A stretch of 57,923 nt of DNA from a bacterium (GCA_021824045.1 JAKALR010000002.1:1-57923), one strand, 5' to 3'; positions 3,413-53,289 are shown, counted from the first letter of the stretch. Notes: generated by a model from the letters alone, not told the origin. A program made the numbers and translations.

Positions 3413-3688
3413 TTACTGGAGAAGTTGCTGGACTAATGTCACGATGCCGGTTGCTAGAATGCCGATCGCGACTGCGACGGCTGCGTAGATGATTTGTTTT
3501 TTCCCCTTTTCGAATTTTTTCGCGTCGTCGCCCGCCGTGAGTATCTGAAAGGCGCCGATCAAGATGAAGAGGACTGCGAGGACCAGGAGGATCGAATACA
3601 GGATCCCTCCCAGCCGGGTGATGGCATCGATGACCCCCTGGGGCGTCGTTATCGAGCTTGTGGCGTAGGCCGTGTTTATCAAATTCAT
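3413..3688 (-). CDS. VirB2/TrbC-like (T4SS pilin-like) small membrane protein, paralog P1
   Basis: 91 aa with a two-helix hairpin: LLVLAVLFILIGAFQILTAGDDAKKFEKGKKQIIYAAVAVAIGILATGIV. It shares this core with four neighbouring ORFs. Confidence 0.7.
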   Translation of the reverse strand: MNLINTAYATSSITTPQGVIDAITRLGGILYSILLVLAVLFILIGAFQILTAGDDAKKFEKGKKQIIYAAVAVAIGILATGIVTLVQQLLQ

Positions 3689-3791
3689 CCCGTTAGAAAT
3701 AAACTAAATAACCCAGTTGACGAGAAAGGGTTTTGCGTTTCATCGCTTCATAGTGACGGTGTAAATTGATTGCGCGTTTATTTCTAACGGG
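3689..3791 (-). mobile_element. Family-1 TIR element, subtype A (103 bp), abutting the P1 start codon
   Basis: 16 bp TIRs CCCGTTAGAAATAAAC / GTTTATTTCTAACGGG, flanked on both sides by ATTCAT (ATGAAT on the coding strand) at 3683-3688 and 3792-3797. Confidence 0.75.
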
Positions 3792-3820
3792 ATTCATGGT
3801 TTTATTATATCAAAAGAAAT

Positions 3821-4420
3821 CTATTGAGGCTCTTGGCAGGTATGCAAAATTGCATCGCAATATCCGGAATAGCATTCTGTGGGGCTGCCGCACTGCTGGC
3901 CGATTCCCTTCTGGCACTCACCCGTTGTCTGGTTGCATATCTGGCCGGGCAATACGCAGCCGCTCACATTGCATCCTGAGACGAGCGGGGCCGGCGGTAC
4001 CGGATTTATGGAACCGTACGTCGTTGTCGGTACACCGCCGCTCGGCGTCGTACCGGAATTCGTCGCTGTGTCGAAGAACGAGGTCACGAGGAGAATGACG
4101 CCGCCGCAGAGGATGCCGATCACGAGCGCGATAATGGCATTTTTTATGATACCCCTCCCTTTCTTAATTTTGTTGTCGTCGCCGCCCGCAGTGAGAAAAT
4201 TGAATGCCCCGATTAAAATGAAAACGACGACGACGGCGAGCAGAATGCCGAAGAGCCAGTTCCTCGCCAGGTTTATGGTGCTGATGACGGCGCTCCAGCC
4301 GCTCTTTGAAATGCTGGTCTGCGGAGGGGCCGAGGCGATTTGCGCAAAAACCGATGCCGCCCAAGTGAGCGGCATCAAGGTTGTTACGATGAAAATTATT
4401 TTACGAACCAATTTGAGCAT
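3821..4420 (-). CDS. VirB2/TrbC-like pilin paralog P2 with Cys-rich C-terminal extension
   Basis: Signal-like N-terminus. Core is ILLAVVVVFILIGAFNFLTAGGDDNKIKKGRGIIKNAIIALVIGIL. C-terminal tail contains 8 Cys (GCNVSGCVLPGQICNQTTGECQKGIGQQCGSPTECYSGYCDAILHTC). Confidence 0.7.
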   Translation of the reverse strand: MLKLVRKIIFIVTTLMPLTWAASVFAQIASAPPQTSISKSGWSAVISTINLARNWLFGILLAVVVVFILIGAFNFLTAGGDDNKIKKGRGIIKNAIIALVIGILCGGVILLVTSFFDTATNSGTTPSGGVPTTTYGSINPVPPAPLVSGCNVSGCVLPGQICNQTTGECQKGIGQQCGSPTECYSGYCDAILHTCQEPQ

Positions 4421-4438
4421 CGCCGGCTTCAGATTGTA

Positions 4439-4819
4439 TTAGCCTTGGTTAAACGGATTGGTTGGGGTAGATCCGGCACTCTGACCCATAAAGGTTATGA
4501 TCAAGGACACGATGCCTTTCGCGAGTAAGCCCAACACGACGGCGATGATAGCGAACGTGATCATTGACTTCGCTTTCTTGACTTTCGCGTCGTCGCCGCC
4601 CGCGGTGATATAGCTGAAAGCCGCAATGAGGATCAGGACGACCGCGGCAGCGAGCAAAATGCCGAGAATCCAACTTGCGATGGTGCTGATGATCTGGATG
4701 ATGCCGCCGTAGGTCGTTATGCCCGACGGGACCGTGACCTGCGCCAATGTCAAAAGCGGCAAAGCGCCAACGCCGTATGCCAATACTTTAATGAACTTCT
4801 CTAAATTTAGCTTTTTCAT
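4439..4819 (-). CDS. VirB2/TrbC-like pilin paralog P3
   Basis: Signal-like N-terminus plus core ILLAAAVVLILIAAFSYITAGGDDAKVKKAKSMITFAIIAVVLGLL. Confidence 0.7.
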   Translation of the reverse strand: MKKLNLEKFIKVLAYGVGALPLLTLAQVTVPSGITTYGGIIQIISTIASWILGILLAAAVVLILIAAFSYITAGGDDAKVKKAKSMITFAIIAVVLGLLAKGIVSLIITFMGQSAGSTPTNPFNQG

Positions 4820-4882
4820 GATGTTATTTTCTTATCCCCCATGAGGATGTACGACCTTTTCTCTGCTTATCTAAACAGGAGA

Positions 4883-5272
4883 TTAACCGCTGAGTATCTT
4901 CTGTACGATGCTTATTATACCACTTCCTACGAGGATTATACCATAGCCCACTGCCGTGTAAAGAATAGTTTTCTTGCCTTTTTCGAACTTCGCGGGCTCG
5001 CCGCCGGAAACCAATATCTGAATGCCACCCACGATGACCATGAAAGCGGCAATCGGCGATCCGGCCATAATGAGCCACTGCATGATGTTCTGCAAAACAC
5101 TTCCGATATCGCTGTTGGCGCTCCCCAGAGGATTGATAAGGGTGATATTGACAGCGCTCGGACTCGGCGGATTGAGATCGGCGAGAACGATACTGCCCGA
5201 GGTGAAGATGAAGATGACGGCAATGAGAAACGCGAATTTTTTTATCCCGTTAGAAACAAAAAGTTTCTTCAT
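4883..5272 (-). CDS. VirB2/TrbC-like pilin paralog P4. Start is placed at the ATG inside the upstream repeat element; the ORF stays open to 5365
   Basis: MKKLFVSNGIKKFAFLIAVIFIFTSGSIVLA reads as a signal peptide. Core is FMVIVGGIQILVSGGEPAKFEKGKKTILYTAVGYGIIL. There is no ATG directly after the element (ATA instead). Confidence 0.6.
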   Translation of the reverse strand: MKKLFVSNGIKKFAFLIAVIFIFTSGSIVLADLNPPSPSAVNITLINPLGSANSDIGSVLQNIMQWLIMAGSPIAAFMVIVGGIQILVSGGEPAKFEKGKKTILYTAVGYGIILVGSGIISIVQKILSG

Positions 5273-5350
5273 AAGCCATTGCTTACGAAGCGCGGTTGAC
5301 TCGACTTCTTTTGTAATCATTTTTTCCATAGGTTTGTGGTTTCTCACGGG
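5246..5350 (-). mobile_element. Family-1 TIR element, subtype B (105 bp), in frame with P4
   Basis: TIRs CCCGTGAGAAAC (coding-strand upstream arm) and GTTTCTAACGGG (gene-proximal arm). The internal sequence is homologous to copies 6188, 7607 and 29320. Confidence 0.75.
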
Positions 5351-5380
5351 ATTCATTGATTTCATTATACCAAAAGAATA

Positions 5381-6187
5381 TTACCAAGAACCCTCCGCTC
5401 CGCCGAATGGACCGGAATGTGCTCCGTTGGTGGACATCTGAATGCAGGAACCATTCGCCTCGCAATCGGCCTGAGTCGTATAACAAGTATAAATCGTTGA
5501 GCTGCCAAAGGTAACAGACGAGGTTTGAACTGCCCAAACCTGCTCTGGGGAAACGGCCGGCTTGCCGCATGCCGACTTCGACCCCGCATATATCGCCGCA
5601 TTGCTACAGAATGTTCCCGAAAAGTCGCTCAAGCTCCACGTGACTCCGGTATTTGAGCAGGCGTAATTGCCATTGCCGGCAACCTTCATATAGGTGCTTG
5701 AGGAGTTTTGAAGACCAGGCGCGGAATTGATCGGCTGGAGCTGCTGGTTGTGCGTGCAGGAGATTTGATCCCACGGAAACGCGGAGCTGCCGGTCAAGAA
5801 CCGGATTACCGTCGAGACGATGATCCACGAAAGGAGAGCGATCGCGACGCCCGTCACCGCTTTGATGAGGGTTTTCTGCCCCTTCTTGAACGTATTCTCG
5901 TTTCCCGTCGCGATGATCATCGTGATGCCGCCGATCACGATCATGAGAGTTCCGATGACGAGGGAGAACTTGAAGAGCATCTGGATGATGTTGTTCGTGA
6001 CGATGATGGCGTCGCAGAAATCGCAGGGGCCCACCGGGCCGCCCGTCGTGCTCTGGGCCGCGCAGCTCGTGTTGGTCCAAATGCCCGTGCCCTGGGCAAG
6101 CGCGAGTCCGGAACTCGACAAAAAGAGAATTATAAAAAATCCGAAAGCGGATGTGATTGCCAGTTTTGCTGTGAACCTTCTCTTCAT
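5381..6187 (-). CDS. VirB2/TrbC-like pilin paralog P5 with Cys-containing N-region and long Cys-rich C-terminal extension
   Basis: Signal-like N-terminus. Core is LVIGTLMIVIGGITMIIATGNENTFKKGQKTLIKAVTGVAIALL. The roughly 135 aa tail has multiple Cys. Confidence 0.65.
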   Translation of the reverse strand: MKRRFTAKLAITSAFGFFIILFLSSSGLALAQGTGIWTNTSCAAQSTTGGPVGPCDFCDAIIVTNNIIQMLFKFSLVIGTLMIVIGGITMIIATGNENTFKKGQKTLIKAVTGVAIALLSWIIVSTVIRFLTGSSAFPWDQISCTHNQQLQPINSAPGLQNSSSTYMKVAGNGNYACSNTGVTWSLSDFSGTFCSNAAIYAGSKSACGKPAVSPEQVWAVQTSSVTFGSSTIYTCYTTQADCEANGSCIQMSTNGAHSGPFGGAEGSW

Positions 6188-6293
6188 CCCGTTAGAAATA
6201 AAACACTTTCTTCATAAGCAATTGCCTATGATGCATGATTAGCTCGACTTGATAAATGGCCATCTTTTTCATAAGGTTGTGATTTCTTACGGG
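6188..6293 (-). mobile_element. Family-1 TIR element, subtype B (106 bp), fills the SBP-P5 spacer
   Basis: TIRs CCCGTAAGAAAT / ATTTCTAACGGG. The upstream ATGAAT overlaps the SBP stop (TAATGAAT). The gene-proximal TIR abuts the P5 ATG at 6187. Confidence 0.75.
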
Positions 6294-6298
6294 ATTCA

Positions 6299-7606
6299 TT
6301 AGAATCCGCTATTCATTATACTCGTCACCTGGCCTTCTGCCTGCTTCACGGCGTTTTCCGGGGTGCTTTGGCTGGTTACGTACGCATCGATCATTTGTGA
6401 GAGAACGTTATTAATTGAGCTCCGTTGCGGCCCATACCACGACCGGGCGTAGAGAGCCTGCTTCGCGAAAACCGAAAGAGACGGATCATTCAGGGAGGCG
6501 TTGATTAGGGAAAGGAGCGCCGGAGGATTGCCGGAAGCTTTCAGATATAAGTCGGCGGAAGTTTGGTTGGCGGCCATGAATTGTATGAACTGCCAATCCA
6601 GCGTTTGGTATCTCGACTGGCGGGACACCACGTAGCCGGAATAGTTCGGATACGCGACGTAGACCGTGGATGACGCCGGCTGGGGCATCGGCGCGACGCC
6701 GTAATTCAAGAACGAGTTCTTCGCCTTCAACTGGCTCAGGGCCGATTCATAATCAAAAATCATCGCGACTTTGTTTCCCGCGAACGCGTCCAAGGAGTCA
6801 GGCATATTGTAATTCCAGGTATAGAGTTTGTTTGTGGGATTTGAGAATTGCGCGTAGAACTGCAGGGCACTAAATCCCGTCGGGGAAGCGAACGTCGCCT
6901 GGTTCGTCGAGGGATTCGTCATCGCCGTGCCGGTCTGGAGCATGAGGAGCGACAGGAGATCGGGAGCGTGGTCGATGTTCACGGCGGATGTTCCGATGGC
7001 CGCCGCCGACTGGTTCACGGTGCCGGTCGAAGAAATCTCTGTCAGGGACGGGATTATGCTGTCAAAGCTTTGCCAGGTTGTCGGCGGATAGACGATACCC
7101 GCCTTAGCGAAGAGATCCTTGTTATACAAAAGAGCCATGGTATCCACGGAAAGCGGCAGCCCGTAGACATATCCTCCGGAGACGAAGTCCTGCGAAACCA
7201 CCTGCGGGAAGTATTGCTGCAGCATGAAGGGTGAAAGTTGGGCCGGGTTTGCGGGGACGATCTTGTTCAAATACGCGGGAAGTTCCGTCGAGGGAATCAT
7301 GAAAATATCCGGCGATTGCCCCGACGCCATGGCCTCGAGGAGCGCCTGGGAATAGATCGTGTAATCACCGAATGACCGGACGTTCACCTTGACGTTGGGA
7401 TAGGTCGCCTTGAAAGAAGATATGATTTTGTCGTAGAAGGATGGCTGGTCGCCGTACACCCACATCGAGAGATTTCCCGCGATGTTCGCCGGGTTCGTCG
7501 TTGAGGTCTTCGCGCCCGGGAGGATACCCGCGAGAATGAGGAGGAGAACGATAACGCCGAGGCCGATGCCTCCGAAAATCAACAGTTTTGTTTTTGAGAG
7601 ATTCAT
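6299..7606 (-). CDS. Extracellular solute-binding protein (ABC-type, family 1-like)
   Basis: 435 aa with an N-terminal TM/signal. Overall resembles sugar-type SBPs. No permease or ATPase gene is adjacent. Confidence 0.6.
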   Translation of the reverse strand: MNLSKTKLLIFGGIGLGVIVLLLILAGILPGAKTSTTNPANIAGNLSMWVYGDQPSFYDKIISSFKATYPNVKVNVRSFGDYTIYSQALLEAMASGQSPDIFMIPSTELPAYLNKIVPANPAQLSPFMLQQYFPQVVSQDFVSGGYVYGLPLSVDTMALLYNKDLFAKAGIVYPPTTWQSFDSIIPSLTEISSTGTVNQSAAAIGTSAVNIDHAPDLLSLLMLQTGTAMTNPSTNQATFASPTGFSALQFYAQFSNPTNKLYTWNYNMPDSLDAFAGNKVAMIFDYESALSQLKAKNSFLNYGVAPMPQPASSTVYVAYPNYSGYVVSRQSRYQTLDWQFIQFMAANQTSADLYLKASGNPPALLSLINASLNDPSLSVFAKQALYARSWYGPQRSSINNVLSQMIDAYVTSQSTPENAVKQAEGQVTSIMNSGF

Positions 7607-7712
7607 CCCGTTAGAAATAAAGCGCCTTTTCCATAAGAGATTGCCTATGATGCGCGACCGACTCGACTTCTTTCGTGACCATCCTTTTCATAAGTTTGCG
7701 ATTTCTCACGGG
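7607..7712 (-). mobile_element. Family-1 TIR element, subtype B (106 bp), fills the gyrA-SBP spacer
   Basis: TIRs CCCGTGAGAAAT / ATTTCTAACGGG. The element begins 2 nt after the gyrA stop and ends at the SBP ATG (7606). Confidence 0.75.
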
Positions 7713-7714
7713 AT

Positions 7715-10159
7715 TTACAGGCATACAATGCCGACGAGCTTATCTCCTTTGTCCAAATTCATAATCTTGACTCCTTGGGTCGCTCTCCCGAGGATGCGCA
7801 CGTCTTTGAGGGGTATCTTGATGGCCTGTCCTTTCGAAGAGAAGGCGAGGAGTTCCATAATGTCGTCTCCCACGACGTGGGCGCCGATCACGACGCCGGT
7901 TTTTTCGGTGATATTCGCCGTCTTGATCCCGGAACCTCCCCTCCGTTGTATTTTATACTCCTTGAGGTTGGTTTGCTTGCCGAAGCCGTTCGCGGTCACG
8001 ACCAAAAGTTTCGACGTGGCAATCGATTTCGTGGGCACGATATCGGCGCCGCTCACGGTGTCGCTCTTCTTGAGACTGATGGCTTTCACGCCGCCGGCGG
8101 TTCTCCCCATGCTCCGGATGTCCTTTTCCTTGAATCGGATTGCTTGGCCCGAAGTCGTGGTGAGAATCACCTCGTCGTTTCCTTCGGAGAGTTTTACCCA
8201 GAGAAGTGCGTCGTCGCCTCCGAGCTTCACGGCAATGATGCCGGTCCGCCGGACGTTTCCGAAATCCCCGAGAAGCGTTTTCTTGATGATCCCCTTTCGG
8301 GTGATCATCACAAGGAAGCCTTCCGTCGTGTCTTTGGGGTAAGAAATAATCGCGCTCACCTTCTCGGTCGTCGGCACCTCAAGGAAGTTATAGATTGATT
8401 TCCCCTTCGAAGTGCGCGACGCTTCCGGTATCTCGTATGCCTTGGTCTGGAAAGCCCTCCCCTTGTTGGTGAAGAAGAGAATGTTGTCGTGCGTGGAGGC
8501 GTAAATAATCTGGGAAATCTTGTCTTCTTCCTTTAATTCAGCGCCAATGAGCCCCTTCCCGCCCCGCTTCTGGGCGCGGAACGTTTCTGGCGGCATCCGC
8601 TTGATGTAGCCGTCTTCGGAAATGGCAACAATGGAATCGCCTTCGGGAATGAGATCTTCCTCGTTGAACTCCTTGAGTCCTCCGGCAACCAGTTTTGTTT
8701 TCCGTCCGCTCACGAACGTTTTTTTCAGGTATTCCAAATCAGCTTCGATGATGGCGAGAATTCGCTTCGGATCCTTGAGGATGATCTTGAATTCCGCGAT
8801 CATTGTTTTCTTTTCCTTGAGTTCGTCTTCGAGTTTGATCCGCTCCAGGGCGGCCAGGGATTGCAGTTTCATTTCCAGTATCGCGTCGGCTTGGAGCGCC
8901 GAGAGTTTGAAATTTTTCATCAGGTTCACCTTGGCGGTTTCCCGGTCCTTGGATTTTTTGATTGTCGCGATGATCTTGTCGATGACATCGAGCGCGGTGA
9001 CCAATCCTTCCAGGATGTGCGCCCGCTCCTCCGCTTTCCTGAGATCGAACTCGGTCCTCCGCTTGATGATTAATTTTCGATGGTCGAGATAGTATGCCAG
9101 GACGTCTTTCAGGGAAAGCACCTGCGGCTGGATGCCTCCGACGAGGGCCAGCATGTTGTAGTAGAAATTCTTCTGCAGCTCGGTGTATTCGAAGAGCTGG
9201 TTCAGGATTTTTTGGGGGTTCGCGTCGGTCTTGAGTTCGATGACGATTCGAAGCCCTTCCCGGTCCGATTCATCCCGCACATCCCGGATGTTTTCTATTT
9301 TCTTTTCCTGCACCAGGTCGGCGATTTTCGTGATGAGATCCGATTTATTGACCTGATACGGGATCTCCGTGATGATAATTTGAAAACTCCCGCTCTTTCG
9401 CTCTTCAATCTCTGCCTTGGCGCGCATCGTGATGGATCCTTTGCCGGTTGAATACGCTTCTTCGAGTGATTTCTTGCCGTAGACAATTCCTCCCGTCGGG
9501 AAGTCGGGTCCCTGAATGAATTGCATGAGGTCTTTCACGGTCGCGTCCGGGTGCCGGGAGAGATGGATGACTGCGTCGGCAACTTCGCCGAGATTGTGGG
9601 GCGGGATTGAAGTCGCCATGCCGACGGCGATGCCGACGGTGCCGTTCAGGAGCAAATTGGGAAGTTTCGCGGGGAGGAATTGCGGCTCCTCGCGGGTCGA
9701 GTCATAGTTGGGTATCCAATTAACCGTTTCCTTCTCGATGTCCTCGAGCATTTCTTCGGCGATCCGCGAGAGCCGCGCTTCGGTGTATCGCATGGCGGCC
9801 GGGCTGTCGCCGTCGACGGATCCCCAGTTCCCCTGGCCGTCGATCAGCGGGTAGCGGAGGGAAAAATCCTGGGCCATGCGGGCCAGGGCGTCGTAGACCG
9901 CCATGTCGCCGTGCGGATGGTATTTGCCGAGTACTTCTCCCACGACATTCGCGGATTTTTTGAATTTGGCGCTGTGGGTGAGGCCGATGTCCCACATTGC
10001 CCAGAGGATTCTCCGTTGCACCGGCTTCAATCCGTCGCGGACATCCGGCAACGCGCGGGAAACGATGACGGACATCGCGTAATCGAGATAGCTTTCGGAA
10101 AGTTCCGCGGTTATTTCCTTATCTTCTATTTTTCCTTGTTCCCTTTTTTCGTCTTCCAT
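7715..10159 (-). CDS. gyrA: DNA gyrase subunit A
   Basis: 814 aa. N-terminus has [26 protein letters not shown] and KYHPHGD, with C-terminal beta-pinwheel repeats. Confidence 0.95.
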
Positions 10160-10253
10160 GCCGAGTATTTCCTCTTTCCCTTATTATCGGCGATTGCAGC
10201 CGAAGAATCAATATCAAAACAAGAAAAATACGCTGAGCGATGACTCGGAAAGA

Positions 10254-10313
10254 CGAAAAAGTGGGTAAGACTTGGCCAAGCGGCCCGGAGCGCACACTTT
10301 TTCGGCTTGCCGG
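10254..10313. repeat. 60 nt palindromic repeat, copy 1 (second copy at 18466-18526)
   Basis: CGAAAAAGTGGGTAAGAC..GGCCAAGCGGCC..GAGCGC.CACTTTTTCGGCTTGCCG. Outer stem is CGAAAAAGTG/CACTTTTTCG. Confidence 0.7.
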
Positions 10314-14748: not shown

Positions 14749-14807
14749 TATTGAGGAGGATTGCATGAGGGAAGTTTTTCATTGACAAAGGCAGTCCGCG
14801 GATTTAC

Positions 14808-14907
14808 CCCGTTAGATTTTGCGGCTTTTTGTTTTCGGGGCAAAGTTGAAAAGTGAGCTTTGTTGTGGTTCAATGAGAGCCATACCCCCGAAGGGAAATC
14901 TAACGGG
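14808..14907 (+). mobile_element. Family-1-related TIR element, divergent subtype D (about 100 bp)
   Basis: TIRs CCCGTTAGATTT / AAATCTAACGGG, flanked by TTTAC on both sides. It ends about 20 nt upstream of the ATG at 14928. Confidence 0.6.
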
Positions 14908-14927
14908 GTTTACCTTGAAAGATACGC

Positions 14928-15440
14928 ATGAATGAAAAAGACCTGAAATTCAATACCTCATACGGCCTCCAGGTGGATCTCGCTTCCGTCGCGGACGAGA
15001 TCGTCGCGTTCATGGAAGGAAAGCCGAAAGCGTCGTATCGGGTGACTATCGGCAGTGATTCGGAGCTTCTGGAAGACAAGATGGCCGATTTCGTGACCGC
15101 CGTTGTCGTTCACCGGATCGGAAACGGGGGAAGATATTTTTGGCGGCGCGTGAGGCTCGGGAAGTTCTATAATCTGCACGACCGGATTGTGCAGGAAGTG
15201 ATGTTTTCGATCGACGCGTCGAACGTCTTTTTGAACGTCTTGAAGACCAAGATACAATCGAAGGCAAAAGACGGGTTGAATTTCGATTGGAATTTCGAGA
15301 TCCACATCGATGTCGGCGAGAACGGTCCGACGAAGACACTGATTCAGGAGGTGGTCGGCATGGTCCGAGCGCACAATTTCGAACCGAAAACGAAGCCGGA
15401 GAGCTACGCCGCCTCGAACGTTGCGGACATTTATGCTTAG
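14928..15440 (+). CDS. YkuK/DUF458-like RNase H-fold protein
   Basis: 170 aa. The pattern ...VTIGSDSE...VTAVVVHRIGNGGRYFW... resembles the YkuK family. This is a from-memory assignment. Confidence 0.45.
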   Translation: MNEKDLKFNTSYGLQVDLASVADEIVAFMEGKPKASYRVTIGSDSELLEDKMADFVTAVVVHRIGNGGRYFWRRVRLGKFYNLHDRIVQEVMFSIDASNVFLNVLKTKIQSKAKDGLNFDWNFEIHIDVGENGPTKTLIQEVVGMVRAHNFEPKTKPESYAASNVADIYA

Positions 15441-17635: not shown

Positions 17636-18463
17636 ATGGTGATCGATGGCAGGAAAATAGCGGCGGAGATCGTCGCGAAACTGAAACAAAAACCCGTGCC
17701 GCAGAAGTATCTGGCAGTTTTTTTGGTCGGCAGTGACCCGTCATCGGTAGGCTTCATCAAACAAAAGGAAAAGCTGGCCAAAGAACTTGGTGTCGATTTT
17801 CGCCTCTATAAATATAATGAGTCGACAACGCAGGACGAGCTCCGGAAAGAAATCCATAAGATCGGCGACGGGAAACCGTGCGGCGGCATTATTGTGCAGC
17901 TCCCGCTTCCCGGCTCGGCCGATCCGCAGTACGTTCTCAACGCCATGCCGCGGGAAAAGGATATTGACGTTTTGGGCGAGCGCGCTCTCGGCGCATTTTA
18001 CGCCGGCAGAAATATCATTTATCCTCCGTCCGTTGAGGTGGTGAAGGAGATAGTGGAAATTGAAAATTGCAAAATTGAAAATTGTACTGTTGCCGTAGTC
18101 GGCTTGGGCAAGCTTGTCGGCAAGCCCGTCCAAACGTGGCTCACGGGAAGATCGAAAGAAATCTCCCTCATCGATGAAGGGGGAAACTTTGATGTGTTAA
18201 AAAACGCCGATATCGTTGTTTGCGGTACGGGTGTTCCGGGACTCATCAAGCCCGAGATGCTCAAAGAGAACGCGCTCGTCATAGACTTCGGGTACGGTCT
18301 GAGCAGCGGAAAGCCCTCCGGCGATTTCGATGCCGACGAATTAAAAATTAAAAATGTAAAACTAAAAATTAGTTACACGCCGACGCCGGGTGGCACCGGC
18401 CCAATCTTGGTGGCGAAGATTTTCGAAAACTTCTATTCCCTAACCAAGGAGAAGACTCGGTAA
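17636..18463 (+). CDS. folD: Bifunctional methylene-THF dehydrogenase / methenyl-THF cyclohydrolase
   Basis: VIDGRKIA..., LPLP, VVGLGKLVGKP, TPTPGGTGP. Start is set at ATG 17636 rather than the TTG at 17630. Confidence 0.9.
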   Translation: MVIDGRKIAAEIVAKLKQKPVPQKYLAVFLVGSDPSSVGFIKQKEKLAKELGVDFRLYKYNESTTQDELRKEIHKIGDGKPCGGIIVQLPLPGSADPQYVLNAMPREKDIDVLGERALGAFYAGRNIIYPPSVEVVKEIVEIENCKIENCTVAVVGLGKLVGKPVQTWLTGRSKEISLIDEGGNFDVLKNADIVVCGTGVPGLIKPEMLKENALVIDFGYGLSSGKPSGDFDADELKIKNVKLKISYTPTPGGTGPILVAKIFENFYSLTKEKTR

Positions 18464-18465
18464 GG

Positions 18466-18526
18466 CGAAAAAGTGGGTAAGACCGGCCAAGCGGCCTTGG
18501 AGCGCGCACTTTTTCGGCTTGCCGAG
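18466..18526. repeat. 60 nt palindromic repeat, copy 2
   Basis: Near-identical to 10254-10313. It lies between the convergent folD and recA genes. Confidence 0.7.
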
Positions 18527-22473: not shown

Positions 22474-22502
22474 TTGACAATAAATAATAATTATGATACT
22501 AT
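22474..22502 (+). promoter_or_regulatory. Sigma70-like promoter (TTGACA, 17 nt spacer, TACTAT)
   Basis: Spacing counted by hand. It lies upstream of the ORF at 22553. Confidence 0.4.
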
Positions 22503-22552
22503 ATGAAATCTAAGAATAGCACACAAACAAAAAAAAGAATGGAGGCATCAAA

Positions 22553-22870
22553 ATGGAACTCGTCGGATTTTTCTTCTGCGTCGCAGCACTTCTCCTCACC
22601 GGTTCGTCTTATTACGACGTCAACCTTGAGGAGGGCCAGGTGGAGGCGGTGAAAAAAATACAACGGCGATTCGTCGTAATGCGGATCGCGTTCATTTTTT
22701 TCACGACCGGATTCCTCATTGTCATGGGAACCTGGAGTTTCAAAAGTGCTCCATTCCCCTTCCACGCCTTCACGACGATGGTCGTGGTGGGGCTGGCCAT
22801 TGCTTATGGTCAATACTCGGCGAGGATGGAATTCCTCGCGTGGCGGAGAGGAGAGAACGGGATGGGATAG
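22553..22870 (+). CDS. Hypothetical small membrane protein
   Basis: GGAGG RBS. 105 aa with three hydrophobic helices. Confidence 0.5.
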   Translation: MELVGFFFCVAALLLTGSSYYDVNLEEGQVEAVKKIQRRFVVMRIAFIFFTTGFLIVMGTWSFKSAPFPFHAFTTMVVVGLAIAYGQYSARMEFLAWRRGENGMG

Positions 22871-23058
22871 TCCCAAGGTTTTTAGGGCACGAATCATAAT
22901 CATGATCCGTGCCCTCTTTCTTATCCCCAGACGTTAGGCCCCCCGCTCTCCTTTAAAGCCCCCGGGGGGCCAAAATTTTGGGGATAACTTTTGATGGAAA
23001 ACTGGGAAAGGGGGGGAAAGCTCAAAAAACTCGGAAAACCCGATAAACCCGGTAAATT

Positions 23059-23173: not shown

Positions 23174-23617
23174 TTAAGGTACAAAATTTCTGTTAAAAAA
23201 ACCACTTTTGTATAACCTATGAAGAAATTTAGTCTTTTCGCTCGTATCTTCGTCTCCCATTTTTTCGAGCCATTCCTTGAACTGCTTGCCCTTGTTCCCA
23301 TGCAATTTGTTATAAAAGAATGGAATTATTATGTTCTTGATTTGCGGGAATTCTCTAACTATAAGCATTGCCTGGCTGCCATGGTTTGGTTTCCTGGTTG
23401 ATGGGGAATAATAGTTATAGACTCTATTTGTTAATCCAAGCTTGTTTCTGACGGATTTTATCAGATCTTCGTCGCGTTCATGCATCTTTAGTGCAAACGC
23501 AGGGACTTTAACTTTTTTAATAGTTCCATCTTTTAATCTTGTGCTGGTTGTGGAGAAAGTAAAAGTACCTTCGCCTTCGACGAGACCTCTGATATATTCA
23601 TCGCTCAAAACCCCCAT
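23174..23617 (-). CDS. LAGLIDADG-family homing endonuclease-like protein (single motif), free-standing
   Basis: 147 aa. YIRGLVEGEGTF matches the LAGLIDADG motif. The gene sits in visibly AT-richer DNA than its neighbours. Confidence 0.65.
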   Translation of the reverse strand: MGVLSDEYIRGLVEGEGTFTFSTTSTRLKDGTIKKVKVPAFALKMHERDEDLIKSVRNKLGLTNRVYNYYSPSTRKPNHGSQAMLIVREFPQIKNIIIPFFYNKLHGNKGKQFKEWLEKMGDEDTSEKTKFLHRLYKSGFFNRNFVP

Positions 23618-23787: not shown

Positions 23788-24159
23788 ATGGGTTTAATGA
23801 CATATCGCCAAGACGTTGGCAGGAAGGGGGAAGATTTTGCGGTGGAGTATTTGAAAAAGAAGGGATATCGGATTATCGGAAGAAACGAGGAGAAGAAGTG
23901 GGGAGAACTCGATATCATAGCCATAGCTCCGGACAAGACGCTGGTTTTCGTCGAGGTGAAGACGGTAGGGGGATGGGACGTTGAGGCGGAGGAGCAGATG
24001 ACCGAATCGAAGATAAAAAAGTTTACGAGGGCAGCCGAGATATACGCGGGCGTGCACGAAGAACTGATTGATGATAAAAAGGGATGGCGCCTCGATGTCC
24101 TGGCGCTCACCGAGAAGGATGACGGGAAATTCAACACGAATCATTATGAAAATATCTGA
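23788..24159 (+). CDS. yraN: YraN-family endonuclease (UPF0102)
   Basis: GRKGEDFAVEYLKKKGYRIIGRN...GELDIIA...VFVEVKT. Confidence 0.85.
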   Translation: MGLMTYRQDVGRKGEDFAVEYLKKKGYRIIGRNEEKKWGELDIIAIAPDKTLVFVEVKTVGGWDVEAEEQMTESKIKKFTRAAEIYAGVHEELIDDKKGWRLDVLALTEKDDGKFNTNHYENI

Positions 24160-25636: not shown

Positions 25637-25792
25637 CTTGTCTTTTTTGCGGGGTTGTGGTAGAGTATATACATCAAGGCCGCTCATTCGAGTGGCTGTC
25701 GTTTTTAAAGGTCCTTCCAGTTTGAAAATTTGGTCATTGAAAATTGATTAAAAATTAAAAATTGGAGATTAAAAATTTTTAACGCTATGGAT

Positions 25793-25914
25793 CCCGTTAG
25801 AAATCGCGGACGCGGATCAAATAAGAAATATGAATAAAAAATCAAATAAAAAGGTCAAAATCAAAAACAATGGATGTGATGCGCTTTGCGCGTCCGCGTC
25901 CTATTTCTAACGGG
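25793..25914 (+). mobile_element. Family-1 TIR element, subtype C (122 bp), abutting the nusA start
   Basis: TIRs CCCGTTAGAAAT / ATTTCTAACGGG, extended by GGACGCGGA repeats. ATGGAT is present at 25787-25792 and 25915-25920. Confidence 0.75.
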
Positions 25915-27219
25915 ATGGATTTAAAAGAATTAGCAAGCGCGGTCGAGCAGATATCGGCCGAAAAAGGAATCGCCCCCGAGAAAGTTCTCGGAGCGATTGA
26001 ATCGGCTATCGCCGCCGCGTACAAAAAGGAGTATCGGAAGAAGTCGGAAGTCATTCGGGCCAAGTTCAATCTGAAAACCGGAGAACTGGAATTCTTCCAG
26101 GTGAAAGCCGTCGTTGATCCGTCGGAGGTTACAATCGTCGAAGAGGAGGAGGGACCGGTCGAAAAGCCCGCCGACGCTAAGGCTGTGGCGGATAAGCCCG
26201 AAAAGGCAGAGGGGGAAGAAACACTCCCGCGCTTCAACGCGGATCGGCAGATCCTCGCGGAGGACGCGAAGAAAATAAAAGCGGACGCTAAATCCGGCGA
26301 CGAGCTGGAGTTCCCACTCGAGGGGAAGAGCGACTTCGGTCGCATCGCGGCCCAAACCGCCAAGCAGGTGGTTCTGCAGTCCATTCGCGAAGCGGAGCGT
26401 TCTTCCATTAAGGATGAGTTCTCGAGCAAGGAAGGAGAAATCATGAGCGGGCAAATCCAGCGGTTTGAGCGCGGGAACGTGTACGTGAACCTCGGACGCG
26501 CCTTGGGAATTATGTATCCCAATGAAAGCATCCCGGGAGAACATTACCGGGTCGGCGATCGAATGCGGTTCTATGTCCTGGCCGTTCAGGATGACGCCCG
26601 GCGTCCGGGCATCGTTTTATCGCGTTCGCACCCGAACTTCGTCAGGAAACTTTTCGAACTTGAAGTTCCGGAAATAGCGGACGGAACCGTCGTTATTAAG
26701 GAGATTTCACGGGAAGCGGGTTCGCGCACCAAAGTCGCCGTCGCCTCCAATGAAGAGGGCATCGATCCGGTGGGAGCCGCCGTCGGCCAGCGGGGGACGC
26801 GGGTGATGGCGGTCACGAACGAACTTGGCAATGAGAAAGTTGATGTCATCGAATGGTCCGATGATCCGGCGAAATTCATCCCGAGTGCTCTCTCGCCGGC
26901 GAAGGTGAAATCAATCGAGGTGTTGCCGAGGAGGGAAGCGAGGGTTCTGGTCCCCGAGGATCAGTTGAGCTTGGCTATCGGCAAGGGCGGGCAAAACGTC
27001 CGGCTCGCCGCGAAATTGACCGGCTGGAAAATTGATGTCCGCTCTCAATCAAATCCGGAAGAAGTCCAGGAGGGCGGTATCGCGGCCAGTGAGGTAAAGC
27101 ACGGGGGAGGAGAAGAAGCGGCGAGTGAAGCGATCGAACCCGCCGCCCACGATGACGAAGACGAAGACAATCCGAAACTGGACGTTGAAGTTTTAAATAA
27201 GGCAGTCGAAGAAAAATAA
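25915..27219 (+). CDS. nusA: Transcription termination/antitermination factor NusA with acidic C-terminal tail
   Basis: [19 protein letters not shown], an S1 domain, and KH domains ([22 protein letters not shown]). Start is set after the repeat element. Confidence 0.92.
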
Positions 27220-29278: not shown

Positions 29279-29319
29279 TGCGTCGGATTCTTTAGTATAG
29301 AAGGTAATACGCTATAGAT

Positions 29320-29425
29320 CCCGTTAGAAACCGCAAACTTATGGAAAAAATAATTACGAAAGAAGTCGAACTAGCCGCGCATGATGCGCCATCGCTTGCG
29401 AAGAATGCGTTTTGTTTCTAACGGG
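29320..29425 (+). mobile_element. Family-1 TIR element, subtype B (106 bp), abutting the murD start
   Basis: TIRs CCCGTTAGAAAC / GTTTCTAACGGG. The internal sequence is homologous to copies 5246, 6188 and 7607. Confidence 0.75.
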
Positions 29426-30871
29426 ATGAATTTCAAGGACAAGAAAGTTTTAGTGATGGGGCTCGGGACCCTGGGCGGCGGGATCGCCGCGGCAAAGTGG
29501 TTTGTGCGGCAGGGCGCGCGGGTCACCGTGACCGACACGCGGCCGGAGAAGAATCTCGCGGCCTCGGTGAGGGCGCTCGGCGGAGCGGCGAAGAAAATCA
29601 CCTTCATTTTCGGAGAACATCGGGAAGAGAATTTCAAGGAAAATGATGTCATTGTCGTGAACCCGGCCGTTCCGCGGGAAAGCAGATATCTCGCGATCGC
29701 GAAAAAAAACCGGAAACTCCTGGTGAACGACGCTCGGGTTTTTTTTGATGTCGTGAAAAACCCCGTCATCGCGGTCACGGGGACCCGGGGGAAAACGACG
29801 ACGACGAACTGGATAGCCCATTTTCTAAAAGTGAAAAACGGGAATGTCGTCGCGGCCGGGAATTCTTCCGATGTCGCTCTTTTGGATCTCGCGGATAAGC
29901 TGAACGATAAAAAAGAGCCGGTAGTCGTCGAGCTTTCGTCGTGGCAATTGGAGCTTTTGCCGGGAGCACGGCGCGCGCCCGACATCGCGGTTATCACCAA
30001 CCTCCATCCGGACCATTTGAACCGGTATCACGGGATTAAAGCGTACGCCCTCGCCAAGGCGAATATTTTCCGGGGACAGAAGAGGAGCCAAAAATTGATC
30101 CTGAACGGCGACAGTCCATGGACGGAATTCTTTTTGCGATTGCGGCCGAAATCGTCGATCTTTTTCTTTTCTCTCCGGCAGTTGCCGAAAAACAGGAACG
30201 GAATTTTCCTGAAAGAGGGAGTAATTTTCTTCCGGTTCGGGGGAGTGTCCGCGCCGGTGGTCGCGAAAGAAGCCGTCTCGAGTGTCGCGGGGAAAGGGGA
30301 GCATAACGTCGCGAATTTCATGGCCGCAGCGCTTGCCGCGCATCTCGCGGGCGTTCCGTGGTCCGCGATAGCGCGAGCGGCGGGAAAACTGCCGCAGATA
30401 CGATATCGAGAGGAAATTGTTGTACAAAAAAAGAATTTCACGGTGGTAAACGACTCCACAGCCACTTCGCCCGACGCCGTCATTGCCGCCATCCGCCGCT
30501 TTAAGAGCCGAGGTGATTTGATTCTCATAACCGGCGGGACGGATAAAAATCTCGATTTTGAACAACTTGCCGAAGAAATAAAAAAGACGCTCCCGCCGGA
30601 AGACGTTTTTTTGTTGAACGGCAGCGCCACAAGAAAACTTGTAACTGAGTTGAAAAAGATGAAGTATTTTAATGAACAAAAACCTCAGCTTTTCGAAAAC
30701 CTCGAAGATATTCTAAGGGAAATTAAGTCCCTATACGCTATACCCCACACCCTAACCTCTCGTATCATTCTCTTTTCTCCCGGTGCCGCGAGTTTCGAAA
30801 AATTCAAGAATGAATTCGACCGCGGGGAAAAATTCGATGGATACGCGAAAAAGGTATTCAGACAGAAATAG
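29426..30871 (+). CDS. murD: UDP-N-acetylmuramoylalanine--D-glutamate ligase
   Basis: VMGLGTLGGGIAAAKWF and TGTRGKTTT. Start is set at MNFKDKK after the repeat element. Confidence 0.88.
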   Translation: MNFKDKKVLVMGLGTLGGGIAAAKWFVRQGARVTVTDTRPEKNLAASVRALGGAAKKITFIFGEHREENFKENDVIVVNPAVPRESRYLAIAKKNRKLLVNDARVFFDVVKNPVIAVTGTRGKTTTTNWIAHFLKVKNGNVVAAGNSSDVALLDLADKLNDKKEPVVVELSSWQLELLPGARRAPDIAVITNLHPDHLNRYHGIKAYALAKANIFRGQKRSQKLILNGDSPWTEFFLRLRPKSSIFFFSLRQLPKNRNGIFLKEGVIFFRFGGVSAPVVAKEAVSSVAGKGEHNVANFMAAALAAHLAGVPWSAIARAAGKLPQIRYREEIVVQKKNFTVVNDSTATSPDAVIAAIRRFKSRGDLILITGGTDKNLDFEQLAEEIKKTLPPEDVFLLNGSATRKLVTELKKMKYFNEQKPQLFENLEDILREIKSLYAIPHTLTSRIILFSPGAASFEKFKNEFDRGEKFDGYAKKVFRQK

Positions 30872-39924: not shown

Positions 39925-39975
39925 AGCCGCTTATTGGCGGATTTTTATTTTTCATGTACCATTGAGTAAATGGAT

Positions 39976-40078
39976 CCCGTTAGAAATAAACACGCAATTT
40001 ATTTATATCGTTATTATGAATCGGTTCAATGCAACAGCTTTTCCAGTCGGCCGAGTTATTTAGTTTATTTCTAACGGG
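39976..40078 (+). mobile_element. Family-1 TIR element, subtype A (103 bp), abutting the glyQS start
   Basis: The 16 bp TIRs are identical to those of copy 3689-3791. ATGGAT is present at 39970-39975 and 40079-40084. Confidence 0.8.
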
Positions 40079-41416
40079 ATGGATATTGGGGAAAAAATAA
40101 CTGCTCTCGCGAAGCGCCGGGGGTTCGTATACCCGGGTTCCGAGATCTACGGCGGGCTTGCCGGCACGTGGGATTACGGGCCTTTGGGCGTCGAATTGAA
40201 GCGCAATTTGAAGAACGAGTTTTGGAAATCGATGGTGCAGGAGCGGAGCGATATCGTGGGACTCGACGCCGCGATCATCATGAGCCCGAAGGTGTGGGAA
40301 GCCTCCGGCCACTTGACGTCGTTTTCCGATCCGCTCGTCGAGTGCAAAAAATGCCATCACCGTTTCCGCGCTGATACCCTGATTTCTAAACCCGGAACCC
40401 CAAACCCTGTGGCTTGCCCCGATTGCGGCGGGGAACTCACCGCCCCCAAGCAGTTCAATTTGATGGTGGAAACCTATCTCGGCGTCATTGAGGGAGAAAA
40501 ACTGAAGACATATCTCCGGGGAGAGATTACGCAAGGCGTGCACGTCAATTTCAAAAACATCCTCTCGTCCACGCGCGTCAAAATTCCCTTCGGCGTCGCG
40601 CAAATCGGCAAAGCATTCCGGAACGAGATAACACCCGGCGGTTTCACGTTCCGATCGCGCGAGTTCGAACAAATGGAACTCCAGTACTATGTGAAGCCGG
40701 ACATGAAGGAATCCATGAAGCAGTTTGAGTATTGGAAAAAGGAAAGGATGGCTTGGTATGTCTCGCTCGGCATGAAGAAGGGGAACTTGCGGTTCAAGGA
40801 GCATGCCAAGGACGAGTTGGCGCATTATGCAAAAGCCGCTTTTGATATCGAGTACTATGCCGAAGGGGAATGGAAAGAAATGGAAGGAATCCACCACCGC
40901 GGCGACTGGGACGTGCGGCGCCACCAGGAGTTTTCGGGCGAGGATATGACGTACCTCGACGAAGAGGCCAAGGAAAAATTCCTTCCCTTCATCATTGAAA
41001 CATCCGGCGGCGTCGATCGGGCGGCGCTCTTCTTCCTCATGGACGCCTATGAAGAGGAAAAAACAAAAGATGGGGAAACGAGGACGGTGCTCCATTTGCA
41101 TCCCAAGCTTGCGCCGTACAAAGTTGCCGTGTTTCCGCTCTTGGCGAATAAACCAAAGCTCGTCGACGTCGCAAGGAAAATTTATGACGATCTGAAAAAA
41201 GATATGATGGTTGCCTGGGACGACCGGGGGAACATCGGCAAGCGGTACCGCGCGCAGGACGAAGCCGGTACCCCCTATTGCGTTACCGTCGATTTCGACA
41301 GTTTGGAAAGTCCGCCGGCCGGCGGAGATGTCACGGTCCGCGACCGCGATACCATGAAACAGGAACGGGTGAAGATTAAGGCACTCGGCGATTATTTGAA
41401 AGAAAAATTAATATAA
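40079..41416 (+). CDS. glyQS: Glycine--tRNA ligase (dimeric class II type)
   Basis: RRGFVYPGSEIYGG, FRNEITPG..FRSREFEQME, and GGVDRAALFFL. Confidence 0.93.
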   Translation: MDIGEKITALAKRRGFVYPGSEIYGGLAGTWDYGPLGVELKRNLKNEFWKSMVQERSDIVGLDAAIIMSPKVWEASGHLTSFSDPLVECKKCHHRFRADTLISKPGTPNPVACPDCGGELTAPKQFNLMVETYLGVIEGEKLKTYLRGEITQGVHVNFKNILSSTRVKIPFGVAQIGKAFRNEITPGGFTFRSREFEQMELQYYVKPDMKESMKQFEYWKKERMAWYVSLGMKKGNLRFKEHAKDELAHYAKAAFDIEYYAEGEWKEMEGIHHRGDWDVRRHQEFSGEDMTYLDEEAKEKFLPFIIETSGGVDRAALFFLMDAYEEEKTKDGETRTVLHLHPKLAPYKVAVFPLLANKPKLVDVARKIYDDLKKDMMVAWDDRGNIGKRYRAQDEAGTPYCVTVDFDSLESPPAGGDVTVRDRDTMKQERVKIKALGDYLKEKLI

Positions 41417-52724: not shown

Positions 52725-52878
52725 TGTTTTTTTGTTTTTCGTTTACAAAACGCAATGTTGGACTGTCGACTCCTCAATCGCCTTGCGTTTCTTTATCTCT
52801 ATTCATTATAGAGTTTTTTGTTGGAAAAATCTGTGGATAACTCCGAAAGACGAATTTTTAGTTTAAAATTTTTAATTT

Positions 52879-53289
52879 TTATGACTCGCCGAAGAGACGA
52901 TAATGGTGGACGAGTTCGAGATACGCGAAGGCGCACAGGAAAAACGCGAGAAGGCCGACACCGATCGCGGCCTTCGATCCGATCTTCGGCGCGAGGATCG
53001 CGACCAAAACCATGTAGGGGACCCAGGAGACGATGGTGCCGATAAGCACGAACCAGGCGTGCTGTCCGACGGCCGCGCCGCCTCTCGACTCGCCGATGAA
53101 GAAGTAGGCGACAAGCGTGAAGACGGGGATCAGCGTCGCGAATCCGGAAAGGAGACGCTCGCCGTTCTCTTCAAGCGCGACGATGAGCGTGGTGAAGATG
53201 CCGCCCGTCAGGAAATAAATCCCGTAACTTTTTATGAAATGCCACATATGGTTATTGTATTGCACGATGCTATAATGAAGCAACTTCAT
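52879..53289 (-). CDS. Hypothetical small membrane protein
   Basis: 136 aa with four hydrophobic helices. The true start may be the internal MWHF at 53247. Confidence 0.5.
   Translation of the reverse strand: MKLLHYSIVQYNNHMWHFIKSYGIYFLTGGIFTTLIVALEENGERLLSGFATLIPVFTLVAYFFIGESRGGAAVGQHAWFVLIGTIVSWVPYMVLVAILAPKIGSKAAIGVGLLAFFLCAFAYLELVHHYRLFGES

Follow-up and report, generated by a model that had tools for sequence, protein, structure and literature searches.

Mobile inverted-repeat elements that rebuild host start codons share their ends with a 276-bp unit encoding a GIY-YIG nuclease

The stretch of bacterial DNA analysed here in full (57,923 nt; GCA_021824045.1, JAKALR010000002.1:1-57923; hereafter the window) carries eight copies of an inverted-repeat element of 100-122 nt. 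We found that these elements are mobile, that they were inserted recently, and that their insertion duplicates 4 bp of target and rebuilds the start codon of the gene downstream. They belong to a cross-phylum family that shares its ends, its duplication, its sites and its orientation with a 276-bp unit encoding a nuclease. We consider it likely that the window copies are non-autonomous, gene-less members of a family of very small mobile elements that insert at start codons, whose autonomous form is this unit of about 276 bp with its GIY-YIG nuclease, and whose insertion rebuilds the host start and hands translation over to the host gene.

A reading made from the DNA without database searches (hereafter the sequence-only reading) had described eight copies, and a scan of the window confirmed them at the same coordinates. 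The repeat TTTCTAACGGG, with at most one mismatch, matched 14 times, against 1.4 matches expected from shuffles; the shorter CCCGTTAGA gave 16 termini, all of them paired, and no solo ends; and a generic search for CCCG…CGGG inverted repeats spaced 25-200 nt apart returned exactly the same eight elements. The proposed subtypes also held, with A (two copies) at 103 nt, B (four copies) at 105-106 nt, C at 122 nt and D at 100 nt, as did the uniform internal orientation, which we could follow within subtypes A and B. Every copy ends in inverted repeats of 12-13 bp, perfect or with one mismatch. These repeats are one base pair longer than had been described, because a further terminal pair lies beyond CCCG and CGGG, T…A in seven copies and C…G in D. 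With eight copies in 58 kb, the elements hold only short, unconserved open reading frames (ORFs), and the claim that the window lacks a transposase was borne out by Pfam for its approximately 60 ORFs. All eight copies are flanked by a 4-bp direct repeat, perfect in five (TGAA twice, TGGA twice, TTTA) and differing by one base in three.

An ATG opening a long ORF stands directly at the element end in six of the eight copies. Pfam assigned the downstream ORFs to type IV secretion system (T4SS)-type pilins (P1 and P5), a solute-binding protein (SBP), NusA, MurD and glycyl-tRNA synthetase (glyQS), in agreement with the identities proposed earlier. At a seventh gene, pilin P4, the upstream copy of the start codon stays ATG and ATA follows the element. 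The earlier observation that the gene-proximal repeat ends at the first codon is therefore correct for six ATGs and one ATA, and it overlooked the flanking duplication and the start codon retained upstream. This original start (ATGAAT or ATGGAT) is kept in front of the copies at P1, P5, nusA and glyQS. Because the duplicated 4-mer begins with TG, the upstream side still reads ATGAAT or ATGGAT, and on the downstream side the terminal A of the element joined to TGAA makes ATG again. At P1, for example, the terminal A of element A1 is the A of the ATG, and the TGAA copies lie at 3793-3796 and 3684-3687. It is the insertion itself that rebuilds the abutted codon.

Empty orthologous sites, a check that had been proposed at the outset, were found in relatives. 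Among contigs with relatives of the SBP gene, L120, L122 and L124 (our labels for database stretches) keep the gene order gyrA-SBP-P5-pilins-P1 without an element over 2.5 to 21 kb, and a single copy of the 4-mer is present in one or another of them at five of the eight window sites. The P1 site is empty in L120 (tataataaaaccaATGAACTTGATAAAC; junction TATAATAAAACCA-ATGAAC), the P4 site in L122 (gatataATGAAATCAATGAAAAAAATAGCG; junction ATGAAATCA-ATGAAAAAA), the P5 site in all three (L124 ggattctaATGAAAAAGG, L122 ctgATGAAACGG, L120 ctgATGAAAAAATCC; junction TA-ATGAAAAAG) and the site of copy D in L122 (ATTGACAaaggtactccccggaTTTACCttgaaagatacttATG; junction GGA-TTTA-CCTTG). The closest relative is L124, whose SBP is 94% identical to that of the window in amino acids; in DNA, window and L124 align with 91% identity. 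Its gyrA/SBP junction is uninterrupted (ATGCCTGTAAATCTCTCAAAAAC, reading ATGCCTGTAAATCTCTC across), and the blastn alignment of the two sequences breaks exactly at element B1, with a 4-nt overlap in the subject. Empty sites in relatives, including one with a 94% identical SBP, indicate that the insertions are recent.

The gyrA-SBP-P5 stretch had been described as one in which elements fill the intergenic spacers, and so it is: the gyrA stop lies 2 nt before B1, and at the SBP/P5 junction the upstream ATG of B2 overlaps the SBP stop (TAATG). The left copy of the B1 duplication reads TAAA and the right copy TGAA. The older SBP ATG is located 12 nt upstream of B1, and this former start (ATGCCTGTAAAT) now leads into the element; since the right copy is TGAA and not TAAA, a single A-to-G change presumably made the present SBP start. 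After the insertion SBP is shorter by two N-terminal residues (435 residues, against 437 in L124). The window holds an insertion under repair, with a new SBP start, beside an insertion that has turned into protein in pilin P4. A 77% relative, L125, carries at 1500-1625 a 126-nt element with ends CCCGCACCTTTAGAGAAT on the same gyrA/SBP start codon, flanked by ATGAAT…ATGAAC. This element differs from B1 at the same junction and hence represents an independent insertion, and its end type implies that the wider family has more end variants than our search pattern caught.

Species-representative genomes were scanned for CCCGTNAGAAA-N70-100-TTTCTAACGGG, which gave at least 119 stretches, mostly from Patescibacteria and also from Deltaproteobacteria/Thermodesulfobacteriota, Planctomycetota, Omnitrophota, Nitrospirae and further phyla. 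The matches listed and the window, taken with a slightly relaxed pattern, formed a sample of 140 copies. The bases next to the repeat core (positions -1 and +1) were complementary in 96% of 138 copies (C-G 73, T-A 57), positions -5 to -2 matched +2 to +5 in 74-87% of copies per position, and the next positions outward did so in 44-51%. A perfect 4-mer duplication was present in 87 of 136 copies, most often TGAA (32) or TAAA/TTTA (23). The interiors were very diverse and fell into 103 similarity clusters among the 140 copies. Even in two orthologous genes (L019 and L051, 50% protein identity), each with a 106-nt copy on its start codon, the interiors could not be aligned.

The preference for start codons extends beyond the window and across phyla. 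A start codon (ATG, GTG or TTG, with an ORF of at least 70 codons) stood at +1 in 59 of the 140 copies (41%), and 26 more copies lay within 20 nt of a start. The share was 45 of 81 (56%) in Patescibacteria versus 7 of 44 (16%) in other phyla (p=2e-5), and within Patescibacteria 40 of 48 T…A copies were on starts versus 5 of 28 C…G copies. Elsewhere the insertion interrupts a -35 box, such that the right side reads G followed by TTGACA with a -10 hexamer 17 nt further on, and further copies sit on stop codons. Upstream of the old ATG, -10-like hexamers peaked at a distance of 6-7 nt (17 of 47) and Shine-Dalgarno-like motifs occurred in 3 of 47 cases; among the other genes of the window the corresponding counts were 14 of 46 and 8 of 46. 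The -10 peak together with the rarity of Shine-Dalgarno motifs suggests that insertion usually hits the first codons of a gene that is leaderless or of a cistron under translational coupling.

Orientation is biased as well. Homologous start-codon copies had the same orientation to the gene in 14 of 14 pairs, corresponding to about 12 independent comparisons (p about 2e-4). Both biases of the sequence-only reading therefore persisted when distance and orientation of copies were followed in the wider genomes. Of the ATGRR sites in the window, 414 are coding, 63 are non-coding and 30 coincide with start codons; 7 of these 30 are occupied. Loss of coding insertions alone predicts about 32% of copies at starts (30/93), whereas all 7 T…A-type copies are found there. 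Neutral insertion does not explain either the position or the orientation bias, as had been argued from the window when random insertion of transposable elements of the miniature inverted-repeat kind (MITEs) was set against a function; the part of that argument that fell is its opposition to mobility, given the empty sites and the 4-bp duplications. Start codons have also been hit more than once, with independent insertions on one and the same codon in the window and L125 and in L019 and L051.

Read from the retained ATG, the 5' repeat is divided as CCC-GTT-AGA, and the length of the element decides how this frame ends. Elements of length 1 mod 3 bring the TAA of TTTC-TAA-CGGG into frame, with 4 nt left to the host ATG; in those of length 2 mod 3 the TGA of ATGA closes the frame, and at 0 mod 3 the frame joins the host protein. 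In translation, A1, A2, B1 and B2 have open frames of 34-37 codons ending at the TAA of the 3' repeat. In B4, where decay has turned the upstream ATG into ATA, the same frame is opened by an internal ATG (29341) and runs to the same TAA (29419-29421, read by hand). The earlier suggestion of a portable translational-coupling cassette fits these observations, in that five of seven window copies have a frame from the old start to the TAA of the 3' repeat or into the gene. Across start-codon copies, the frame was open to the 3' end in 20 of 45 versus 10 of 45 for flipped elements (p=0.04), a length of 1 mod 3 was seen in 29 of 59 start-codon copies versus 25 of 81 others, runs of at least five T occurred in 8 copies on the sense strand versus 23 on the antisense strand, and 2 of 45 start-codon copies are fused in frame to the host protein. 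These statistics describe modest effects, and a hand-over of ribosomes is plausible but not general. The predicted RNA fold is dominated by the terminal helix (-28 to -49 kcal/mol, z-scores down to -6.3).

The same ends enclose a gene elsewhere. In L035 (Omnitrophota) and L069 (Parcubacteria), units of 276-279 nt with these ends contain an ORF of 84-89 codons that matches the GIY-YIG family PF01541 (E=6e-14 and 4e-16). A further search, of metagenome contigs, used the protein as its sole query and took no account of the DNA ends. Among the best 80 of 425 relatives, 70 loci had 11-nt inverted repeats around the ORF and 41 had the strict CCCGTNAGR/YCTNACGGG at both ends; other loci showed co-varying end variants (CCCGTACGAAAT/ATTTCGTACGGG, CCCGTTAGAGCC/GGCTCTAACGGG). 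From these we obtained 57 non-redundant units, mostly of 273-283 nt, with T…A termini in 37 and C…G in 18, and with TGAA as the commonest duplication. A host start at +1, co-oriented with the nuclease ORF, was present in 27 of 52 units, compared with 0 of 49 for the antisense side. The 3' repeat itself encodes the C-terminal end of the nuclease (…RFLSLTG). In 36 units the ORF then stops at a TGA or TAA that comes from the duplication and in 10 at the repeat's own TAA; the stop usually overlaps the host ATG. The repeat variants TTAGAGAT, TACGAAAT and TTAGAAAT occur in both short and nuclease-bearing forms at the same loci.

The nuclease has 84 residues and is of the UPF0213/YhbQ type, matching the structures 1ZG2 (E=4e-8 over residues 2-67) and 1YWL. 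Positions Y4, Y6, Y17, G19, R27, H31, E46, E51 and E63 are invariant across 22 aligned proteins, and the Tyr, Arg, His and Glu among them agree with conserved, active-site-type residues known from GIY-YIG domains. The only NCBIfam match is a weak one, below cut-off, to group I intron endonucleases. The protein is abundant (1246 clusters), its top 120 matches are 85-94% identical, and its annotation is generic only. Database entries sometimes give 92 instead of 84 residues, which may reflect a start assigned at the host ATG. A search of the literature, whose cover was incomplete, gave no paper on GIY-YIG mini-genes bounded by inverted repeats.

Some loci hold more than one element. At L167 (1486-1915) three are stacked on one host ATG, namely a GIY-YIG unit followed by a short copy in which another short copy is nested, and tandems of a unit and a short copy also occur in L154, L156, L169, L174, L177, L187 and L188. 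Mini-hairpins of about 30 nt, made of the two repeats and a loop of 6-8 nt, are present in L075 (6817-6846 and 7024-7053), L079 (about 3979-4012) and L115 (about 4278-4304), which suggests that the repeats alone can persist or move. In L007, two inverted copies (2167-2258 and 4942-5033) with inverted flanks GTAAACATACAG…CTGTATGTTTAC surround the gene of a 686-residue secreted protein and may form a composite arrangement. A GIY-YIG ORF in L001 (4427-4651) lacks the usual ends; it is flanked by the direct repeat GGGCCCATAG, with a tRNA-like sequence before it, and may be an insertion in a tRNA gene.

Taken together, we propose the following working model. All members share the ends (T/C)CCCGTTAGA…TCTAACGGG(A/G), and insertion duplicates 4 bp of the form T-N-N-A, most often TGAA; in Patescibacteria it usually targets TGAA, TGGA or TGAG directly behind the A of a start codon. 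With the left copy, the original ATG keeps its own signals, for the most part a -10 box at a distance of 6-7 nt on the upstream side, a sign of leaderless mRNA, or else an overlap with the stop of the preceding cistron; the terminal A (or G) of the element together with the duplicated TG provides an ATG (or GTG) for the host gene. From the old ATG a frame opens across the element, which in autonomous units is the nuclease ORF or feeds into it and in the window copies would yield a meaningless peptide of 34-37 residues. This frame would end at the TAA of the 3' repeat (TAACGGGATG) or at a TGA overlapping the host start (ATGA), and ribosomes would pass to the host gene by termination-reinitiation; where the length is a multiple of 3, the element is read into the protein, as in pilin P4. 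We propose that the biases in position and orientation arise because of this start-codon and read-through arrangement, probably together with a directional target preference. Passage of ribosomes, mobility driven by the nuclease and the mode of target choice are the parts of the model that we infer.

Several observations weigh against this model. The scan demanded perfect ends, which skews the sample to young, intact copies. In 25 of 45 start-codon copies the frame of the old ATG meets an earlier stop, implying that the hand-over is not alike everywhere, and the base-pairing of A and U from the host AUG within the basal stem should hinder initiation. There is no nuclease gene in the window, and the nuclease is thus linked to this genome by family only. 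The interiors of the short copies have no similarity to the nuclease detectable by DNA or profile comparison, which leaves an origin of the short copies by deletion unsupported. Moreover, the known activity of GIY-YIG enzymes is that of a nuclease and not of strand transfer, and a DDE transposase is what one classically reads from inverted repeats accompanied by a fixed short duplication. A tentative suggestion on our part is that the 276-bp unit owes its mobility to the 84-residue protein itself, with the window copies as non-autonomous riders of the unit, and we would not be surprised to see this suggestion fail. If it were true, no smaller autonomous DNA transposon would be known than this unit, which would also be the first element of prokaryotes to be cut- or copy-and-pasted by a GIY-YIG nuclease; it would use the start codon, promoter and ribosomes of its host, make the host ATG from its own last base and take its stop from the duplication.

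A transposase acting in trans would account for part of the data. The copies would then be ordinary MITEs moved by a DDE enzyme, for example an IS1380- or piggyBac-like one, with the GIY-YIG gene as a passenger and the excess at starts as survivorship, in that the duplication restores the start and deletions cannot remove a copy without killing the gene. Inverted repeats, the fixed 4-bp T..A duplication and the CC ends do resemble these elements: IS1380 makes a duplication of 4-5 bp and has CC ends, and piggyBac has TTAA as its target and CCCTAGAAAG ends. That copies also occur in -35 boxes, on stop codons and in the space between convergent genes would be expected of such MITEs, as would the start share of 16% outside Patescibacteria, which looks as if host translation filtered insertions. 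Yet no transposase family recurs in approximately 0.9 Mb around the 119 loci examined, and the window has none. The nuclease ORF is built into the ends, with the 3' repeat as its last codons and its stop from the duplication, in units tightly sized at 273-283 nt and oriented 27:0 toward host starts, which is hard to reconcile with a passenger. Survivorship alone would put about one third of the window copies at starts where all seven T…A copies are, and the independent insertions on one codon and the pile-ups point to a hotspot. We regard this explanation as unlikely, while granting it more weight than the two that follow.

The elements could also have been co-opted as an RNA signal, with a basal helix of 14-18 bp that is cut by RNase III or another nuclease, or a leader that masks the AUG. 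The fold is indeed dominated by a terminal helix in which A and U of the AUG take part, hosts that look leaderless would profit from an AUG at the 5' terminus, and the repeats stay perfect where interiors diverge beyond alignment, albeit partly as an artefact of the search pattern; action of RNase III on such hairpins has a precedent in the Correia elements of Neisseria (PMC2649163). Against a conserved signal stand the insertion polymorphism between close relatives, the want of any Rfam match to the element even at E<=1 (the gathering score was reached by tRNAs only), the 103 clusters of interiors, and the presence of the same ends around a nuclease gene, at promoters and at stop codons. A role as RNA signal seems quite improbable. 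Homing of the nuclease units, in which the empty site is cut and repair copies the element, with the short copies as dead relics, would suit an enzyme fold typical of homing endonucleases, the weak match to intron endonucleases and the 85-94% identity of nuclease proteins across many genomes. The insertions lie in unrelated genes without shared flanks, though, and homology-directed copying cannot explain these; regular 4-bp duplications are not predicted by it either, and the short copies of the window were inserted after the split from the relative with a 94% identical SBP and are therefore still mobile. We consider homing very improbable. A mobile start-codon family with a nuclease-encoding autonomous form remains the explanation that we prefer.

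A number of narrower candidates were rejected. Paired ends 1-3 kb apart, taken as a longer parent, were due to chance (the L032 pair lies inside dnaE), and the region between the two L007 copies encodes the secreted protein and not a transposase; no protein family recurred near the copies. A gene-specific regulator does not fit downstream proteins that are unrelated apart from three pairs. A 6-bp duplication is excluded by outer positions that match in only 44-51% and by the complementarity of -1 and +1 in 96%. A promoter in the 3' repeat for a leaderless start lacks an acceptable -10 hexamer at the right distance, and a conserved peptide is not supported, as B-type peptides were no more alike than the DNA predicts (counted by hand). 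Short copies are not recognisable as deletion products of the nuclease unit, given no DNA or profile similarity. Carriage by phages or plasmids found no support, with no match to the element in 2.9 million viral contigs or in plasmids. Repetitive extragenic palindromes with their RAYT transposases (REP/RAYT) were set aside because a 4-bp duplication is present and no Y1 (RAYT) gene occurs in the window or recurs near copies. Integron attC sites (RYYYAAC…GTTRRRY) differ in that the order here is GTTAGAA…TTCTAAC, with reverse stem polarity, and in that the copies precede housekeeping genes.

The features of the window that bear on the family are collected in the table.

Table. Inverted-repeat elements of the window and the reading frames associated with them (positions counted from the first letter of the window).
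Feature	Position	Strand	Description
Element A1	3688..3792	-	Core 3689-3791 (103 nt) plus T/A pair; on pilin P1 ORF 3413-3688
P1 upstream reading frame	3693..3797	-	From original P1 start through A1 to TAA in 3' repeat, 4 nt before rebuilt ATG; translation MNPVRNKRAINLHRHYEAMKRKTLSRQLGYLVYF*
Element B3	5245..5351	-	Core 5246-5350 (105 nt); downstream start-codon copy decayed to ATA
Pilin P4 ORF	4883..5365	-	37-codon N-terminal insertion encoded by B3 (MKSMNPVRNHKPMEKMITKEVESTALRKQWLMKKLFVSNGIKKFAFL...)
Element B2	6187..6294	-	Core 6188-6293 (106 nt); on start codon of pilin-like P5 (ORF 5381-6187); TGAA duplication
P5 upstream reading frame	6192..6299	-	From duplicated ATG through B2 to TAA in 3' repeat; translation MNPVRNHNLMKKMAIYQVELIMHHRQLLMKKVFYF*
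Element B1	7606..7713	-	Core 7607-7712 (106 nt); between gyrA stop (7715-7717) and SBP start (ORF 6299-7606)
SBP-side reading frame	7611..7724	-	From former SBP start ATGCCTGTAAAT… through B1 to TAA in 3' repeat; 37-letter translation
Element D	14807..14908	.	Core 14808-14907 (100 nt); termini C…G; repeats CCCGTTAGATTT/AAATCTAACGGG; TTTA duplication
Element C	25792..25915	+	Core 25793-25914 (122 nt); on nusA start codon (ORF 25915-27219); TGGA duplication, upstream ATGGAT
Element B4	29319..29426	+	Core 29320-29425 (106 nt); on murD start codon (ORF 29426-30871); upstream copy decayed to ATAGAT
Element A2	39975..40079	+	Core 39976-40078 (103 nt); on glyQS start codon (ORF 40079-41416); TGGA duplication
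glyQS upstream reading frame	39970..40074	+	From duplicated ATG through A2 to TAA in 3' repeat; translation MDPVRNKHAIYLYRYYESVQCNSFSSRPSYLVYF*

Single copies have features of their own. The P1 protein matches the Pfam family T4SS_pilin, and a TATAAT 6 nt upstream of the original P1 start makes it probable that P1 is leaderless. In P4 the element is read in frame, and the pilin domain covers residues 47-112 of the part downstream of the element. The end of copy D is 20 nt upstream of the ATG of a gene that is RNaseH-like (14928-15440; Pfam PF04308), a place within the probable promoter of this gene. Element C contains an in-frame ATG at 25870, and its extended stem CGCGGACGC/GCGTCCGCG is also present in copies of other genomes.

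Other features of the window were noted in passing. Short AT-rich arrays of the AAAATTG/AAAATTA type lie between genes at 18053-18084, 18340-18371, 25722-25778, 33091-33151, 34305-34348 and 52850-52881, one of them just upstream of the nusA element. A second repeat family has two 74-nt copies (10239-10312 and 18451-18524, 81% identical), each with a terminator-like 26-nt inverted repeat (18450-18475/18507-18532) ending in a T-run. A free-standing LAGLIDADG endonuclease ORF lies at 23174-23617 on the minus strand (Pfam E=1e-11), and neither of its neighbouring ORFs (22499-22903 and 23794-24486) has a Pfam match. It might be the mark of an insertion of the intron or intein type; no intron was detected at this place by Rfam. 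The leucyl-tRNA synthetase gene (47758-50589, plus strand) encodes a NUDIX domain inserted at residues 382-500 (Pfam E=5e-11).

The feature is richer in mechanism than first described, and should the nuclease turn out to drive mobility, we may be seeing in it part of a new class of mobile elements. For annotation, it means that gene callers will misplace starts or add false N-terminal extensions at hundreds of genes in Patescibacteria. The essential genes nusA, murD and glyQS tolerate a 100-nt hairpin between old and new starts, which implies efficient reinitiation, read-through or processing in seemingly largely leaderless organisms and makes these genes natural test cases. A 276-bp unit with nothing but a GIY-YIG nuclease would widen the repertoire of transposition enzymes and could give a testable role to part of the UPF0213 family, whose structures are still labelled hypothetical.

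The repeat sequence itself led to chance primer matches only in the literature, and within its incomplete cover we found no relevant report of such elements in Patescibacteria. The closest known precedent are the interspersed repetitive units of mycobacteria (MIRUs; Supply et al. 1997), which the cited accounts, as far as they go, describe as apparently mobile sequences of 40-100 bp that insert at start codons in mycobacteria (PMC12548453, PMC3184786), with tetranucleotide direct repeats at filled sites (PMC3184786). On the same accounts, MIRUs share with the present family the insertion at start codons, the 4-nt direct repeats, a small co-oriented ORF coupled to the downstream gene by overlapping stop and start, and a host with many leaderless mRNAs. 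They differ in that their inverted repeats are imperfect, they often form tandem arrays, they are described from mycobacteria only and they come with no known autonomous partner. The present family has strict repeats of 12-13 bp, occurs in several phyla and has a full-length form with a nuclease; this comparison is one of descriptions, not of sequences.

Correia elements of Neisseria (PMC2649163) are likewise of about 100-150 bp with inverted repeats, lie next to genes with which they are co-transcribed, form a long RNA hairpin and alter the expression of their neighbours. They differ in having 26-bp repeats, a TA duplication, promoters, and sites for integration host factor and RNase III, in not rebuilding starts and in being confined to one genus, in contrast to the repeats of 12-13 bp, the 4-bp duplication and the hosts in Patescibacteria and other phyla found here. 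With MITEs and their parent insertion sequences (PMC3184786) the family has in common inverted repeats, a duplication (4 bp here), multiple copies without an inner transposase gene, empty and filled sites, and ends that also bound a longer coding element, of which the window has none. In contrast to MITEs, this longer form has about 276 bp and a GIY-YIG nuclease instead of a DDE, HUH, serine or tyrosine enzyme, and a descent of the short copies' interiors from it is not detectable.

The UPF0213/YhbQ proteins 1ZG2 and 1YWL share the GIY-YIG match and the invariant Tyr, Tyr-x-Gly, Arg, His and Glu with the nuclease; both were deposited as hypothetical proteins with no mobile context stated. The piggyBac and IS1380 elements have a 4-bp T..A duplication, CC(C) ends and a partial likeness of the ends (CCCTAGAAAG versus CCCGTTAGAAA), but no such transposase was found with the ends described here in the window and the 0.9 Mb of flanks, and TTAA is not among the common duplications. 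Rickettsia palindromic elements (PMC3184786) resemble copy B3 in pilin P4 in being repeats read into protein, which is the exception in the present family (2 of 45). As gene-less mobile repeats, the window elements are a further variant of an already known sort.

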